Source: an uncultured Methanosarcinales archaeon (lineage in GTDB: Archaea > Nanobdellota > Nanobdellia > Woesearchaeales > JAGLXL01). Taken from it: a DNA stretch of 33,695 bases. The stretch covers positions 2,993-36,687 of the forward strand of contig CAYJSO010000001.1 in NCBI GenBank assembly GCA_964372795.1. Direction: 5' to 3'. Of the stretch, positions 6,001 through 15,000 are shown piece after piece. Position 1 is the stretch's first letter, and each line of letters opens with the position of its first letter. The position numbers were made by a program.

Positions 6001-9000
6001 ATTCAAATCAAAAAAAGCGCCGGTAGTTGCATTATACGATATAAAAGACAAAGCCAGAGCAGCAAAGAAATACGGGATTGCGGTAATTGACAGCAGCAAT
6101 AAAATAACAGAATTCCAGGAAAAGCCGGCTAGCCCAAAAACAACATTGGTAAGCACTGGCTGCTATGTCTTTACAAAAGAATCTGCAAAAAAGATAAGTG
6201 AATACGCAACAGAAAGCGATCACAGAGACAACCCGGGTGATTTTATAACTTGGCTTTCAAAACGCGAACCCGTTCATGGCTTTATTTTCTCAGAGAGGTG
6301 GTTTGATATTGGCAGCTTTGAAGCCCTAGAGGAAGCTTACGAAGCATACAAGAAAAGCAAATAAACCAAATAAACCACCATGAAAATAACAGTTTTTGGC
6401 TCAGGATATGTTGGACTTGTTTCAGGAGCATGTCTCGCAAATCTAGGGCACGATGTTCTTTGCATGGACGTAGATGAAAACAAGATTAACAAGCTGAAAG
6501 CAGGCGAGATTCCATTCTACGAACCGGGATTAAAAGAATTGGCTGCAGAAAACGTTAAAAGAAATCGCTTAAAATTCACAACAGACGCAAAAGAAGCAGT
6601 TGAGCACGGCATCGTAATATTAAACTGCGTAGGCACCCCGGGAAAAGATGATGGCTCAGCAAATTTGGATTTTATTTTCGATGTAGCAAAAAACATTGCA
6701 AAGCACATAAACGAATACAAAGTCATAGTAACAAAAAGTACTGTTCCCCCGGGCACAAACCGCAAAATTCATGAAATAATAAAACAGCAAGCTCCACAAG
6801 CAGAATTCGATGTCATCTCAAACCCAGAATTCCTCAAAGAAGGCGCAGCGATAGAGGACTTTAACCATCCAGATAGGATAGTAGTTGGGCTAGAAGACCC
6901 AAACTCAAGCGCAAAAGCAAAAAAAGTAATAGAAGAAATGTACTCCGGCTTATCCCGCACCTACATTGAAACAATCTACACAAACTGGGAAACAGCCGAG
7001 CTAATTAAATACGCATCAAACACTTTCCTTGCAGCAAAAGTCTCTTTCATAAATGAAATCGCAAACATTTGCGATAAAATAGGCGCAAACGTTAAAGTTG
7101 TTGCAAAAGCAATGGGGCTTGACTACAGAATCTCACCAAAATTCTTGAATGCTGGTGTCGGCTACGGCGGCTCATGTTTTCCAAAAGACGTTAGAGCTTT
7201 AACACATTTTGCAAAACAATTAAACTACGAGCCAAAATTAATCAACAGCATAGACATCTTCAATGAAAGACAGAAGACAATCATCGTCGATAAAATCAAA
7301 AAAGCGTTCAACAACAGCTTGCAAAACAAAACAATCGCGATCTTCGGCTTATCCTTCAAGCCAAAAACAAGTGACATGAGAGATGCTCCAAGCATTACAA
7401 TAATAAATTCTTTACTGCAACTAGGTGCGAAAATAAAAGCTTATGATCCAGCAGCAACAGATGTGCACGGAAACGAAGCAAAAAAGATTTTCAACAACAA
7501 AATAACATACCCTAACAATGCCTACGAAGCTGCCCAAGATGCAGATGCAATTGTTTTAGTAACAGAATGGGACGAATTCCGCAGCCTGGACATGGAAAAA
7601 ATAAAAAACAGCATGAAAGACAACAAATTATTTGACGGCAGAAACATTTACGTACCAGAAAAAATGCGTGCAATTGGATTTGAGTATTACGGCATAGGCC
7701 AGCAATAAAACAAAATAAAAGACGGTAATAAAAATTAACAAAAAGTAAAAATAAATCAACTATAATAAAAAACAAAATAAAAATAAAAAATAGTTAAAAA
7801 ATATTATTAAAATAAAACAAATAAAAAATTAAAAACAATTAAAATATAAATGAAAATAAATAAAATGAAACTTCTTGTAACAGGCGGCGCAGGCTTTATC
7901 GGCTCTCATCTATGTGAAGCTTTATTAAAACAAAACCACAAAGTTATTTGCTTGGATAACTTCCACAATTTCTACGATCCAAAAATAAAAGAAAGGAACA
8001 TAAAAAAATGCTTAAAAAACAAAAACTTCACTCTTTACCGCGCCGACATCCTGGACAAAAAAGCACTGGCAAAAATATTTCAAAAAGAGCAGCCGGAAAA
8101 AATAATTCATCTAGCAGCTCGTGCTGGTGTTCGCCCAAGCATGCAAAACCCGGATGCTTACCTGCAGGTTAATGTCCAAGGCACTTTAAATTTGTTGGAA
8201 CTTGCAAAAAAGCACAAGCTTAAGCAGTTCATCCTCGGCTCAAGCTCAAGTGTTTACGGAATAAGAAACAAAAGCAAATTTTCAGAAAATGACAAAACAG
8301 ACTTTCCAGTCTCAGTTTATGGAGCAACAAAAAAATCTGCAGAAGTATTATGCCACGCTTACGCAACAACCTACAAAATTCCAACAACTTGCCTAAGATT
8401 TTTCACAGTCTACGGCCAAAGACAAAGGCCAGACTTGGCAATACACAAATTCACCAAACTAATCACAAACAACCGCCCAATTCCTGTTTACGGCAGCCTG
8501 GAAACAATGCGCGACTATACTTTTATCGACGATATAATTGCCGGAACGCTTAAAGCACTCGAAAAAGAATTTGACTACGAAATAATCAACTTGGGGAACA
8601 ACAACCCGGTAAAACTGAAAGACTTGATTAAACTGCTGGAAAAAACCATCAACAAGCAAGCGATCTTAAATCACTTGCCACCTCAGCCAGGAGATGTTCC
8701 AATTACGTATGCTGATATAAGAAAAGCAAAAAAACTCCTAAACTGGAAGCCAAAAACAAAGATTAAAAAAGGAATAGAAGAATTTATCGCTTGGTATAAA
8801 GCAAACAACTAAACAGCTTATAAAAACAAAATAATTAAATAAAAAATAAAAACAAATTAACTAAGCCCACCTTCTATTCTCAACAAAATCAACCATCCAC
8901 GCAGTCAAATCAATCTTCTCCTTTAACATTTTTTGTCTTTTCTTTTGAAATTCCAATTTAAGATTCTTATTGTTTAATAATTCAACCGCTTTTCTCAGCC

Positions 9001-12000: not shown

Positions 12001-15000
12001 GGAACCGCACCAACAGCAGTGCAGCAAAAGCCTAAACCAATTTTCGCCCAATATGGTGTCTCAGGGCTTATTTTATCAGAAAAAAAATTTATTATTACAA
12101 AGGCAGGTACAATCCCAGCTACATAAAATGGCCCTTTGTAAAATATCTTCTCAGTCATTTTTTCATCATATCCGCCAAAAACCCAAACAATATCACCTGC
12201 ACTCCAACCAGCATCAGCACTCCGCTAAGCACAACTCTCGGAACTCCTCCAACTCTTCCAGTATACAGCCAATAAAAAAACACAGCTAAACCCAATAAAA
12301 ACCCAAGCCCAAACAAAATTCCACCAGCAAGCCCAAAAAACTTCAACGGCTTGTAATCACGATATATTCTAAAAATATTTATCCAGGCTCTCATAGCATA
12401 CTCAAACGGATTTTTAATCAATCTGCTCCTGCCTTCTCTCTTAGCAAAATAAACTGGCACTTCAGCAACTTTAAACTTTTCCTTAAACGCCCTAATCACC
12501 TGCTCCTGTGTATAAGTATGCCCCGAAGTCATCTCAATTTTAGCAACATCAGCATTAAAAGCCCTAAATCCAGTCTGCGCATCCGTTACCTTTGCATTAA
12601 CGATATTTGAAATTACTTTTGAAAAAGCTTTATTCCCAAATCTCTTCAGCCAATGCATTTGTTCTATATAACCCAAAAACCTGCTTCCCAAAACAAGATC
12701 ATAACCCTCTTTTATCTTCTCAATCAGCTTTGGAATATCCTCAGCTTTATACTGCCCATCTGCATCCGTATGCACAATAACATCCGCTTTCAGCTTCAAA
12801 GCATTCTGCATCTCTGTTCTAAACGCTTCCGCCAGCCCATAATTCTTAGGATGCTTAACAACAATAGCCCCGGCTTCTCTGGCAACCTCTGCCGTTCTGT
12901 CTCTGCTTCCATCATCTACCACCTGAATCTTATAGTTATACTCATTTGAACTTAAAACTCGCTTTATCTCCTCAATAACATGCCCTATTGTTCTTTCCTC
13001 ATTATAAGCTGGAATGCTCACTACTACTTTCATAAAGCCTCTCCCTACCACCCCTTATGCCCATATGCTGCTTTATAGCAAACTATTTATATATGTTTCG
13101 TGGCTTAACCTGGCTGGGGTGGTAAAATAATGCAGTCTATAATACCTGGAGTTAAGCTCGAAAAAGCAAAGAAAGTAGCAACATTTGACTTAAATAAGCA
13201 GCAAAACGGCTATTTAATTGAGCTTTACAAAGGCAATGGAAACAACAGCGAAAAGACTGTTGCTTACTTAACAACATTAAAAGTAGGCGTTTTCAAAGGC
13301 TATCATCTTCATCGTATTCGCTCAGCTCACTATATCTGCGTAAAAGGCAAAATAAAAATCATCCTGTACAAAAACAAGCAACGCGAGGAACATATTCTTG
13401 ACGCAAACAATCCAACGAGACTTTACATTCCAAACAACACGGCAACCGGCCTGCAAAACATAGGCGATGAAGAAGCCTGGCTGATTAACTACCCGGATCC
13501 AGCTTACGACCCAAATCTAAAAGACGAACAGGTTGAATACACACAGGAAGAGCTTGAGAAAGGTGTAGAAAAATGATAACATACGAAAAGGTAATGACAA
13601 GAGATGCGCCATTAATAATAATCGAAGCTTGGTGCACCTGCTTCGACAGCTCAATTCCAGCAGCATGTGGGATCAAATGGCCAACACCAATCTTCGTCTT
13701 TCGAAATGGAGCTGTTGAAAGCCAGCGTCCGACAAGACTTTTCCATGAAGAATTGCCTCCAAAACTCTCCTTGCAGCTTAAGAAACCAGAATACGCAAAA
13801 AACGCTCTCCAGAGTTTTGAAAAATACTACAAATATGCAAAATACCTAAAAGGCATTAAAATTAAAAAAGTTGGCTCAGAAGAAGCACTGAAAGAAATAA
13901 AAACTGCAAGCGACGCTTTCACGCAAGGCGGCGCCGGGCTAATCCTTGGGTACTGGTGTGTAGAGTGGAACAAAAAGGCAGCTGATAATGGAAAAGCTTC
14001 TCTGTTCAGCGAGGAAATAATTGAAGGCGCACGCAAAACAAGGGAAGGCGACACCTTGATGGACAACGCTGTCGAAGCTGTTTACGATTACCTAGACATA
14101 ATCGCAGAAAACGAAAACTGGCCTCGCAGCTTGATGAAATTTTTTACTCTAAAAGAACTGGAAGAATCAATAAAAACAAAAAAACCTGATTCTGAATTAC
14201 TAAGAAAAAGAAAAAATGGCTATATATGCCTCAATGGAAAAGTAGTTCTCGCTAATGAAATCAAAGTGACTCTGCAAAAATTAGGGATAAACATTGAAGA
14301 GCCGGAGACAACACAGCCAACACAACTAGATAAACTTAAAGGATTTTGCGCCTGCCAAGGCTACGCAAAAGGCAAAGTTGCAGTTATCTTCAATAGAGAG
14401 CAGCTTAATAAAATTGAAGATGGCGGCATCTTGGTTGCACCAATGACAACGCCATTATTCATGCCGGCAATGCAAAAAGCTGTAGCGTTTGTCACAGATG
14501 AAGGAGGTCTGTTAAGCCATGCAGCCATCATTGCAAGAGAAATGAAAAAGCCGTGCGTAATAGGCACAAAAATCGCAACACAAGTCCTAAAAGACGGTGA
14601 TCTTGTAGAAGTTGATGCTAACAAAGGCATCGTGAGGAAGATAAAATGAAACTCCTAATCACAGGCGGTGCAGGATTTATTGGATCAAATTTTATTAGAC
14701 ATGTTCTAAAAAAATACACCAATTACAAAGTAATAAACTTAGATAAACTAACTTACGCTGGCAACTTAAACAATTTAAAAGACATAGAAAACAGCACAAA
14801 CTACAAATTCATCAAAGGCGACATCTGCGACGCACAACTAGTAAATGAACTTGCAAAAGACATCGACATAATCATAAACTTCGCAGCAGAAACGCATGTT
14901 GACCGCTCCATAGGCAACCCAGACGACTTCATAAAAACAGATGTTTTTGGAACTTACACTTTGCTTGAAGCAGCAAAAAAATATAAAATAAAACGCTACA

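Follow-up and report, generated by a model that had tools for sequence, protein, structure and literature searches.

The window analyzed here is a 33,695-nucleotide stretch of an archaeal contig (GenBank assembly GCA_964372795.1, contig CAYJSO010000001.1, positions 2,993 to 36,687). On the minus strand at 8861-13051, it carries four closely packed genes, which encode a family 2 glycosyltransferase (GT2), an orphan protein, a flippase-like protein of the LPG_synthase_TM family (pfam03706), and a DUF354 protein. These four genes are a real operon in a DPANN (Woesearchaeota-type) archaeon, an affiliation taken from the names of homologs. Judging from the sequences, it is fairly probable that the operon covers the cytoplasmic half, translocation included, of an archaeal system of the three-component type, which adds sugars outside the membrane. 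The three-component concept (PMC11127046) combines a polyprenyl-phosphate-sugar synthase, a flippase, and a GT-C transferase. We propose that the operon is built around a split AglD-like pair, the GT2 and the flippase-like protein. The second position of the operon (slot 2) looks like a variable, exchangeable modifier position, because it is occupied by the orphan here and by a sulfatase-fold enzyme in the closest relatives, and is empty in one locus (L009).

Operon Layout and Start Sites

The listing of open reading frames (ORFs) placed the four genes at 12155-13051 (GT2, 298 aa), 10890-12158 (orphan, 422 aa), 9867-10817 (flippase-like, 316 aa), and 8861-9883 (DUF354, 340 aa), all on the minus strand. 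The GT2 and orphan genes overlap by 4 nt (12155-12158, ATGA), the orphan and flippase genes are separated by a 72-nt spacer (10818-10889), and the flippase and DUF354 genes overlap by 17 nt (9867-9883). The ORF listing and the sequence agree in all these points with the original prediction, whose family assignments (GT2, no family, LPG_synthase_TM, and DUF354) were reproduced by Pfam and NCBIfam searches.

The start of the GT2 gene is probably the ATG at 13033, not the GTG at 13051. This ATG is preceded by GGGAGAGG, and the resulting 292-aa product has the N-terminus MKVVVSIPAYNEE, as in the orthologs. An archaeal TATA-like box, ATATATAAATA, can be read on the minus strand at 13084-13094, about 55 nt upstream of the ATG at 13033 and within the 78-nt divergent intergenic region. 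It is a candidate promoter of the operon. The spacer between the orphan and flippase genes is the sole non-overlapping junction of the operon. It is AT-rich, contains the inverted repeat ATTTACA-TAT-TGTAAAT at 10828-10844, and could hold an internal promoter. The Rfam search gave no match in this spacer. The scan for sigma-70 promoters and terminators returned fewer sites than in shuffled controls, with a model that is not relevant to an archaeon.

Conservation of the Operon in Related Genomes

The synteny sample consisted of 80 DUF354 loci of species-representative genomes (485 relatives detected) and the contigs of the closest relatives, 86 loci in total with the window. All of them were searched with the window proteins, and the neighboring genes were clustered without bias. 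At least 12 Woesearchaeota-type loci contain genes for all three of GT2, the flippase-like protein, and DUF354. The original prediction was to be abandoned if these families lacked conserved synteny in related genomes; for these three, the neighborhood is conserved in Woesearchaeota-type relatives.

The gene order in L009 is GT2-flippase-DUF354, contiguous and with no gene in slot 2. In L089, L091, and L092, and partially in L090, it is GT2, a sulfatase-fold protein, flippase, and DUF354. These four loci carry the closest relatives of the window DUF354, at 70-72% identity. The junctions of the sulfatase-type operons overlap by 4, 4, and 17 nt, where the 4-nt overlaps were noted for L089 and L091. 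The 17-nt overlap between the flippase and DUF354 genes is found in L009 as well as in L089, L090, L091, and L092. The junction equivalent to the 72-nt spacer is a 4-nt overlap in L089 and L091, and an 11-nt gap in L009. Because the 17-nt overlap and the 4-nt overlaps recur in relatives, the packing of the genes exceeds chance. The DUF354 gene is probably coupled translationally to the flippase gene via the conserved 17-nt overlap.

L011, L012, and L022 contain an adjacent GT2-flippase pair, and DUF354 adjoins it convergently in L011 and lies 3-5 kb off in L012 and L022. The flippase gene is separated from DUF354 by a methyltransferase gene in L016 and is followed by a gene for a B12/radical-SAM enzyme in L012. 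No fusion of GT2 and pfam03706 was seen in the related loci, and in the window the two are distinct ORFs that flank the orphan at a distance of 1.3 kb from each other. In 11 of the 86 loci, from both archaea and bacteria, the gene directly upstream of DUF354 encodes a DPM-type GT2 with two C-terminal transmembrane (TM) helices. It is the commonest immediate upstream partner of DUF354 on the same strand. Up to seven loci besides these 11 have the GT2 gene in the same operon, upstream of the flippase gene (in L090, the GT2 is off the contig end).

The Predicted GT2 Sugar Synthase and the Flippase-like Protein

The GT2 protein is predicted by Pfam, NCBIfam, and TM analysis to be a polyprenyl/dolichyl-phosphate sugar synthase of the DPM/AglJ/GtrB/ArnC type. 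It matches Pfam Glycos_transf_2 with 93.5 bits. In NCBIfam, its leading matches are without exception synthases of polyprenyl-phosphate sugars (AglJ, dolichyl-P-hexose transferase, PpgS, and ArnC), each scoring under its equivalog cutoff. The highest of them, the AglJ equivalog TIGR04182, scores 160.9 bits against a cutoff of 325. By sequence, the GT2 is thus a family relative of AglJ and no equivalog. The protein has DxD-type motifs and two C-terminal TM helices at residues 229-259 and 260-291, and its orthologs in the related operons are 54-70% identical. In family and membrane anchor, the protein corresponds to the synthase component of three-component systems, whose activity is predicted for it.

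The flippase-like protein is assigned by Pfam, NCBIfam, and hydropathy to the MprF flippase domain (pfam03706/TIGR00374/PplT). It matches LPG_synthase_TM (PF03706) with 111.9 bits (cutoff 33.4), covering positions 2-301 of the 302 in the profile, and TIGR00374 with 59.7 bits. Eight hydrophobic segments indicate about eight TM segments. The C-terminal aminoacyl-phosphatidylglycerol synthase domain of MprF (DUF2156/pfam09924) is not present; the 316 aa constitute the TM domain only. The protein is a predicted scramblase or flippase for a lipid-linked sugar. The flippases in three-component systems belong to GtrA, SMR, or MATE, whereas this one belongs to the MprF flippase-domain family, from which its flipping activity is predicted.

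Makarova, Galperin, and Koonin predicted in 2015 that the pfam03706 family (arCOG00899) are flippases in archaeal glycosylation (PMC5898192). They reported that pfam03706 forms the C-terminal domain of AglD, and described an archaeal pfam03706 neighborhood with an AglD-like GT2 and a PMT/STT3-like enzyme. The domain, named PplT, is also reported as fused to GT-A and GT-B enzymes, including GT-B-PplT fusions in bacteria (10.1101/2022.03.11.483950). In vitro scrambling of diverse lipids has been shown for full-length MprF of Pseudomonas aeruginosa, a protein that includes this TM domain (PMC11980842).

The homolog search yielded at least 27 stand-alone flippase-like proteins; this search was word-prefiltered and blind to GT2 fusions. 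The window protein is only 33-35% identical to its counterparts in L089 (3877-4812) and L091 (3498-4433), while GT2 and DUF354 of those loci show about 70% identity. The flippases of L089 and L091 are 54% identical to each other. As a hint from a single comparison, this suggests either fast evolution of the flippase gene or its co-variation with the slot-2 gene. The divergence may reflect adaptation to another headgroup.

The DUF354 Protein

The DUF354 protein is assigned a soluble GT-B fold from Pfam, an AlphaFold2 (AF2) model, Foldseek, and a profile search of the PDB. It matches PF04007 with 66.9 bits (threshold 22), with residues 2-336 aligned to positions 2-346 of the 349 in the profile. 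The family is large (4336 relatives were found), and it spans archaea and many bacterial phyla at 44-56% identity. Literature on DUF354, PF04007, or COG1817 is essentially absent, the exception being a study that describes it as glycosyltransferase-like with poorly conserved catalytic residues (PMC4520260).

The AF2 model has a pLDDT of 91.7. The Foldseek search recovered GT-B folds, with UDP-GlcNAc 2-epimerases at the top, followed by GT1 enzymes and MurG, at 10-16% identity. The top match is WecB (1f6d) with a TM-score of 0.73. In the profile search of the PDB, the sole significant match was Escherichia coli MurG, in the N-domain (residues 47-131, E 1.5e-4); a single-sequence search of the PDB gave no meaningful match. 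In the MurG alignment, the MGPS and NNE (E113) segments of DUF354 lie opposite the GGY loop and the HEQN segment of MurG.

DUF354 has an invariant H9-P-A and a near-invariant H12 in the beta1-alpha1 loop, where the inverting GT-B enzymes MurG, Alg14, and Agl24 carry their essential His (PMC8993221). The GGxGGH loop of MurG (motif in PMC8993221) reads I-L-H-P-A-H-V-H in DUF354, with the histidines kept and no glycines. Matches to GT28 models were below threshold (Glyco_transf_28 in 5 of 25 members and Glyco_tran_28_C in 2 of 25). Weak Pfam matches in the N-domain were to Glyco_transf_4 (20 of 25), Glyco_trans_4_2 (16 of 25), and the GT28 N-domain (5 of 25). Likeness to Epimerase_2 (PF02350) is weak and confined to the nucleotide-binding part; the window protein falls below the threshold, scoring 12.5 bits against 30.6 over the C-terminal 48 residues only.

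Membership of DUF354 in the Agl24/Alg13-14 family was considered and rejected on the basis of the Alg14 model and the published description of Agl24. Alg14 did not match any of the 25 members at E<=1, and no GGH motif was seen. The Agl24 paper (PMC8993221) describes a GT115 enzyme with the GGH motif and does not mention DUF354.

MurG (GT28), Alg13/14, and Agl24 share the GT-B fold with DUF354, whose profile resembles the lipid-acceptor N-domain of MurG. All of them add the second sugar onto a polyprenyl-linked first sugar, which is the role proposed here for DUF354. DUF354 differs from MurG in having HPAH in place of GGxGGH and in scoring under the GT28 thresholds, and its acceptor would be a monophosphate-linked sugar. 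We lean slightly toward DUF354 being a MurG-like transferase that extends a sugar linked to polyprenyl phosphate, on the basis of sequence profiles and the structural model. The protein has no signal peptide and no convincing TM segment, with one borderline hydropathy peak at 237-255. Its solubility and presumed use of nucleotide sugars point to action in the cytoplasm, ahead of flipping.

DUF354 orthologs from Kiritimatiellia, Planctomycetota, Acidimicrobiia, Myxococcota, Omnitrophota, and other bacteria (among L013-L088) are 44-50% identical to archaeal ones, which implies transfer between domains. In Methanosarcina, the DUF354 gene is followed by genes for a conserved 349-aa unknown protein, GT2, GT4, and a FemAB/GNAT-like protein. 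The gene that follows DUF354 in Actinomycetota encodes an asparagine-synthase homolog.

Slot 2 in Relatives and the Orphan Protein

The sulfatase-fold proteins in slot 2 of L091 (2089-3501) and L089 (2462-3880) match PF00884 with 180-197 bits. A regular-expression search found no formylglycine motif (C/S-x-P-x-R) in the L091 protein, whose N-terminal region reads ...NATDPSL.... Neither protein has a signal peptide or TM segment. From their sequences, these proteins may transfer sulfo or phospho groups to a lipid-linked sugar.

In L010 (727-8059), from the Woesearchaeota metagenome-assembled genome JAHFSP010000012.1, the genes are GT2, a sulfatase-fold protein, a 761-aa fusion protein, adenosine-5'-phosphosulfate (APS) kinase, flippase, and DUF354. 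The fusion protein consists of a pyruvate-kinase barrel, PUA_2, and ATP-sulfurylase. A complete activated-sulfate module is therefore located inside this operon, and the fusion of pyruvate kinase with ATP-sulfurylase is unusual in itself.

The occupant of slot 2 in the window (10890-12158, minus strand) is a 422-aa orphan, with no match in Pfam, NCBIfam, PADLOC, or PHROG. Two N-terminal TM helices (5-23 and 37-61) are followed by a Lys/Arg-rich stretch and a conserved domain of about 320 aa, which should be cytoplasmic given this arrangement. The family is small. A full profile search of 1.84 billion proteins found 17 representatives, and a word-indexed search found 7 proteins. A metagenome scan with the 7-sequence alignment added two loci, neither of which is glycan-related.

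The AF2 model of the orphan has a pLDDT above 90 over residues ~100-420. The top 14 Foldseek matches in the PDB were all glutamine synthetases (GSs), with probabilities of 0.95-0.97, E values of at least 4.5e-3, and TM-scores of 0.25-0.28. Dop and the gamma-glutamylcysteine ligase GshF appear lower in the list. The fold of the orphan weakly resembles GS, and its top matches are in the superfamily of GS, gamma-glutamylcysteine ligase, and Dop-PafA. The canonical motif order of GS differs from that of the orphan, and the N-terminus of the orphan is a membrane anchor or, in other members, another variable domain. Gln-synt_C, GCS2, and related models did not match any of 16 family members at E<=10, and a profile search of PDB sequences gave no meaningful match, GS included. 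Conserved Glu, Arg, and His residues are located on beta-strands (E154, E201, R203, and H276), and H276 is invariant only among the closest seven members. Based on the model, the orphan is possibly an ATP-dependent carboxylate-amine ligase on a lipid-linked uronic acid.

A search with the window proteins found no orphan homolog in any of the other 85 DUF354 loci. Homologs in L004/L094, L005, L006, L007, and L097/L098 adjoin housekeeping or unrelated genes. The closest homolog, P0156 (43% identity), is encoded in L096 next to a divergent gene of the Phosphodiest family (alkaline-phosphatase superfamily), with an LPG_synthase_TM gene 2 kb away (region 2353-8049). Neither GT2 nor DUF354 is present on this 9.7-kb contig. 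The idea that the orphan and the flippase travel together as a module is not supported, as the L096 flippase is only 28% identical to that of the window and no closer than others. The gene upstream of P0158 is no paralog of the orphan, and no GS sequence was found in any fetched locus.

Some orphan homologs, such as P0004 and P0007 (L001, 8001-10088), have long unrelated N-terminal extensions in place of the TM helices. The extension of P0004 is a repetitive Gly/Asn/Ile-rich segment with a beta-helix-like look, and one more distant member of the family has TPR repeats. These structures suggest that the family has a conserved catalytic domain which is targeted differently from genome to genome.

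The Proposed GT-C Partner and the Surrounding Glycan Island

The GT-C class that includes PMT_2 uses polyprenyl-phosphate sugars as donors outside the membrane. The window encodes one such enzyme on the plus strand at 22341-23807, with a GT-C fold and a Pfam PMT_2 match of 56.8 bits. It would provide the GT-C member of a three-component system, linked to the operon through gene neighborhoods. PMT_2 genes are divergent from and adjoin the GT2 gene in L009 and L011, and are located within 4-5 kb in L016, L091, and L092. We infer that the PMT_2 protein is the extracytoplasmic consumer of the flipped lipid-linked sugar, that is, the third component.

The window as a whole is one long glycan-biosynthesis island, which supplies nucleotide sugars. 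Genes for a nucleotidyltransferase, a UDP-glucose dehydrogenase, and an epimerase are located at 5612-8812 on the opposite strand, just past the 3' end of the operon. A divergent dTDP-aminosugar set includes FdtA-like, RmlB, RmlA, DegT, and hexapeptide acetyltransferase genes. Two more GT2 genes, genes for two AlgX/SGNH-like proteins, a carbamoyltransferase gene, and a Wzx-type flippase gene (30260-31771) are also present. The end of a 779-aa ORF (27924-30263, plus strand), which has no match in Pfam or to PDB sequences, overlaps the Wzx-type gene by 4 nt. Its product could be a divergent polymerase, ligase, or oligosaccharyltransferase.

A 358-aa protein (13573-14649, plus strand) has a C-terminal swivelling phosphohistidine domain of phosphoenolpyruvate-utilizing enzymes as its only recognizable part. 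Its gene overlaps by 4 nt with both neighbors, those for an FdtA-like isomerase (13130-13576) and RmlB (14646-15674), an odd position within a dTDP-sugar operon. Two bPH_2 (bacterial PH domain) proteins are encoded consecutively amid sugar-modification genes (17626-19773, plus strand), one of 164 aa and the next, with three repeats, of 550 aa. A lone 5S rRNA gene (70.5 bits) is located at 5418-5530 on the plus strand, with no 16S or 23S rRNA gene nearby and no tRNA gene anywhere in the window.

Proposed Pathway and Comparison with Known Systems

All steps of the proposed pathway are drawn from family membership and gene context. The GT2, anchored by its two C-terminal TM helices, would load a sugar, donated by a nucleotide sugar, onto dolichyl phosphate (Dol-P) on the cytoplasmic face. 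DUF354, as a soluble MurG-like GT-B enzyme, would add a second sugar to this lipid-linked acceptor in the cytoplasm. The slot-2 enzyme would decorate the lipid-linked sugar; in relatives, this would be sulfation by the sulfatase-fold enzyme, with or without genes for the synthesis of 3'-phosphoadenosine-5'-phosphosulfate (PAPS). The orphan may take this role as a GS-like ligase, for example one amidating a uronic acid, which the adjacent UDP-glucose dehydrogenase and epimerase genes would supply. The pfam03706 protein, as a homolog of the MprF flippase domain, would move the product to the outer leaflet, and the GT-C/PMT_2 enzyme (22341-23807) would transfer it to a surface glycan or protein. 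With conserved GT2 and DUF354 flanks, an exchangeable slot, and a fast-evolving flippase, the surface glycan would be diversified between lineages. Modification of a lipid-linked sugar before or around flipping has precedents in the sulfation of Dol-P-hexose involving Agl7 in Haloferax (PMC3892788) and in HexSDF (PMC10128005).

AglD of Haloferax volcanii, which works with AglR and AglS, has the same domain content, a Dol-P-hexose-synthase-type GT2 and an MprF-flippase-like TM domain. Delivery of the sugar on the outside of the cell falls to a separate membrane transferase in that system, as proposed here (PMC5898192; IPR022791 'L-PG synthase/AglD'). The operon differs from AglD in that the GT2 and the flippase are separate genes with the orphan between them, the GT2 has its own two-TM anchor, and a DUF354 GT-B gene is probably coupled to the flippase gene. 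The triad seen in the window, L009, L011, L016, and L091 corresponds to the neighborhood of arCOG00899, arCOG00897, and arCOG00563 (for example MJ_1079/MJ_1080 of Methanocaldococcus jannaschii, PMC5898192). That neighborhood is a prediction, and the accessible part of the paper mentions no DUF354, COG1817, pfam04007, or variable modifier slot. The core of GT2, pfam03706, and GT-C is thus an already predicted archaeal module, of which AglD is the fused form.

Bacterial three-component systems (GtrA/GtrB/GtrC; ArnC/ArnD/ArnEF/ArnT; PpgS/Rv3779; Citrobacter youngae ORF15/14/12) follow the same logic (PMC11127046). The operon differs from them in its MprF-type flippase, its presumed dolichol carrier, and the extra GT-B enzyme, DUF354. 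Cytoplasmic modification of the lipid-linked sugar ahead of flipping also occurs in the Arn pathway (the ArnD step). HexSDF of Clostridioides difficile likewise combines a GT-B lipid glycosyltransferase, a headgroup-modifying enzyme (a deacetylase), and a stand-alone MprF-like flippase (PMC10128005). It differs in its diradylglycerol glycolipid substrate, the MGDG-synthase-like HexS, and the lack of a GT2 or GT-C partner.

The original prediction read the four genes as a self-contained pathway that makes, modifies, translocates, and then elaborates a lipid-linked sugar. The logic of making, modifying, and translocating gains support from the sulfatase-fold enzyme in slot 2 of relatives and from the addition of ATP-sulfurylase and APS kinase in L010. 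The pathway is not self-contained, as the likely final enzyme, GT-C/PMT_2, is encoded outside the four genes and adjoins GT2 in L009 and L011. Elaboration by DUF354 after translocation is unlikely for a soluble GT-B protein with no signal peptide or convincing TM segment. The orphan is no conserved member of the operon; it is missing from the 85 other DUF354 loci and its homologs are mostly in unrelated contexts. The combination of families had also been considered uncharacterized. This does not wholly hold, as the GT2/pfam03706/GT-C core was predicted in 2015 (PMC5898192). We found no published description of DUF354 as a conserved, coupled partner, of an exchangeable modifier slot, or of the orphan family. 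The same goes for a slot in which PAPS-synthesis genes accompany a sulfatase-fold protein devoid of the formylglycine motif.

Alternative Explanations

Several observations weigh against the pathway proposed here. No pfam03706 gene is near DUF354 in about 70 of the 86 loci, which indicates that DUF354 does not generally need this flippase. The pfam03706 protein could be made redundant by the Wzx-type flippase of the island, or by flipping activity of the synthase itself, which has been proposed for DPM-type enzymes (PMC12992685). In the window, 9.3 kb lie between the operon and the PMT_2 gene, and the 72-nt spacer could separate two transcripts. The best structural match of DUF354 is a UDP-GlcNAc 2-epimerase and no glycosyltransferase, and few glycosyltransferase catalytic residues are conserved in the family according to the 2015 study (PMC4520260). 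The likeness of the orphan to GS is weak (E 4.5e-3, TM-score <0.3) and has no sequence-level backing. The orphan is found in this operon once, with most homologs among unrelated genes.

The operon could instead serve the assembly of the main N-glycan chain. The GT2 would be an AglJ/AglK-type initiator on Dol-P, DUF354 would add the second sugar, pfam03706 or Wzx would flip the oligosaccharide, and the oligosaccharyltransferase AglB, from another locus, would attach it to Asn. In Euryarchaeota, GT2 enzymes of the DPM-like type assemble N-glycans on Dol-P (PMC8993221, PMC3892788), AglJ is the best NCBIfam match of the GT2 (TIGR04182, 160.9 bits), DUF354 is MurG-like, and the island contains further GT2 genes and the Wzx-type flippase. 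However, the AglJ score is far under the cutoff of 325, the window shows no recognizable STT3/AglB gene (neither Pfam nor the PDB gave a match for the 779-aa ORF), and the recurrent GT2 neighbor in relatives is the PMT_2 GT-C, a hallmark of systems with Dol-P-monosaccharide donors. We consider this explanation unlikely. Synthesis of a membrane glycolipid as in HexSDF is very unlikely. There, DUF354 would glycosylate an archaeol-based lipid, the slot-2 enzyme would modify the headgroup and alter surface charge, pfam03706 would flip the glycolipid, and the GT2 would be loosely connected. The flippase/DUF354 junction, the tightest and most conserved of the operon (17-nt overlap in six loci including the window), is consistent with this explanation, as are the production of an aminoglycolipid in C. 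difficile by HexS (GT-B, MGDG-synthase-like), HexD, and the MprF-like HexF (PMC10128005), the bacterial GT-B-PplT fusions (10.1101/2022.03.11.483950), and the action of MprF-type proteins on membrane lipids. On the other hand, GT2 and DUF354 are equally conserved within the operon (54-73% identity, unchanged order), GT2 adjoins the flippase gene in L009, L011, L012, and L022, and GT2 of the polyprenyl-phosphate-sugar-synthase type is the commonest immediate partner of DUF354 across domains. The co-occurrence of PMT_2 is also left unexplained by glycolipid synthesis.

Two further explanations concern single proteins. DUF354 could be a nucleotide-sugar 2-epimerase-like enzyme that prepares the donor, such as UDP-ManNAc, for the GT2. 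The top Foldseek matches (1f6d at 0.73, NeuC, MnaA, and others) and the weak Epimerase_2 matches in the C-terminal domain of 14 of the 25 members point in this direction, and coupling to a DPM-type GT2 across domains fits a donor-supplying enzyme equally well. All Epimerase_2 matches are nevertheless far under threshold (12.5 against 30.6 bits in the window; best member E 0.0066), the N-domain matches are to glycosyltransferase families, the sole significant PDB sequence match is MurG, and the conserved histidines are placed where inverting GT-B enzymes carry the essential His. We consider an epimerase-like role unlikely. A stronger case can be made that the orphan is functionally unrelated, being a lineage-specific insertion or the replacement of a lost modifier, so that the unit is GT2, flippase, and DUF354. 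This is a serious possibility, if somewhat short of an even chance. It agrees with the absence of the orphan from the 85 other DUF354 loci, the housekeeping or unrelated genes beside its homologs, the sole loose junction downstream of it (72 nt, with the palindrome), and L009, in which the operon works as a unit without a slot-2 gene. Against it, the start of the orphan gene and the stop of the GT2 gene share 4 nt (ATGA), an arrangement typical of translationally coupled genes, and clear modifying enzymes occupy slot 2 in relatives. The orphan is membrane-anchored with a cytoplasmic domain fit for a lipid-linked substrate, and its closest homolog is encoded 2 kb from a pfam03706 gene and right beside a gene of the alkaline-phosphatase superfamily. 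Its GC content is not anomalous, and there is no match to phage or defense families (PHROG, PADLOC). Should the orphan prove to have no part in the pathway, what remains is an ordinary core module that had been predicted before.

Beyond the three-component-type system proposed here, a bolder form of it can be outlined, which we regard as quite unlikely as a whole. The operon would be a plug-in platform for the diversity of DPANN surface glycans. Its slot would hold the first member of a new family of GS-like, ATP-dependent ligases here, and in relatives a PAPS-dependent sulfotransferase, namely the sulfatase-fold enzyme without the formylglycine motif, acting on the lipid-linked sugar. The ligase would be membrane-anchored and couple a lipid-linked uronic acid with an amine or amino acid, and the fast-evolving MprF-type flippase would be matched to the modified headgroup.

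Implications

The identity of Dol-P-sugar flippases is unsettled in archaea and eukaryotes, and the role of pfam03706 has been a prediction since 2015. The operon and its relatives are compact linked sets of a synthase, a MurG-like transferase, a modifier, a flippase, and a GT-C enzyme, which could be co-expressed to test the flippase idea. Such sets could yield the first assigned function for DUF354, a family of more than 4,300 members from archaea and bacteria. They could also help to find enzymes that sulfate or amidate lipid-linked sugars; the Agl7 step in Haloferax is genetically assigned and mechanistically undefined. DPANN archaea depend on cell-cell contact with their hosts, and they may vary their surface glycans by cassette swapping.

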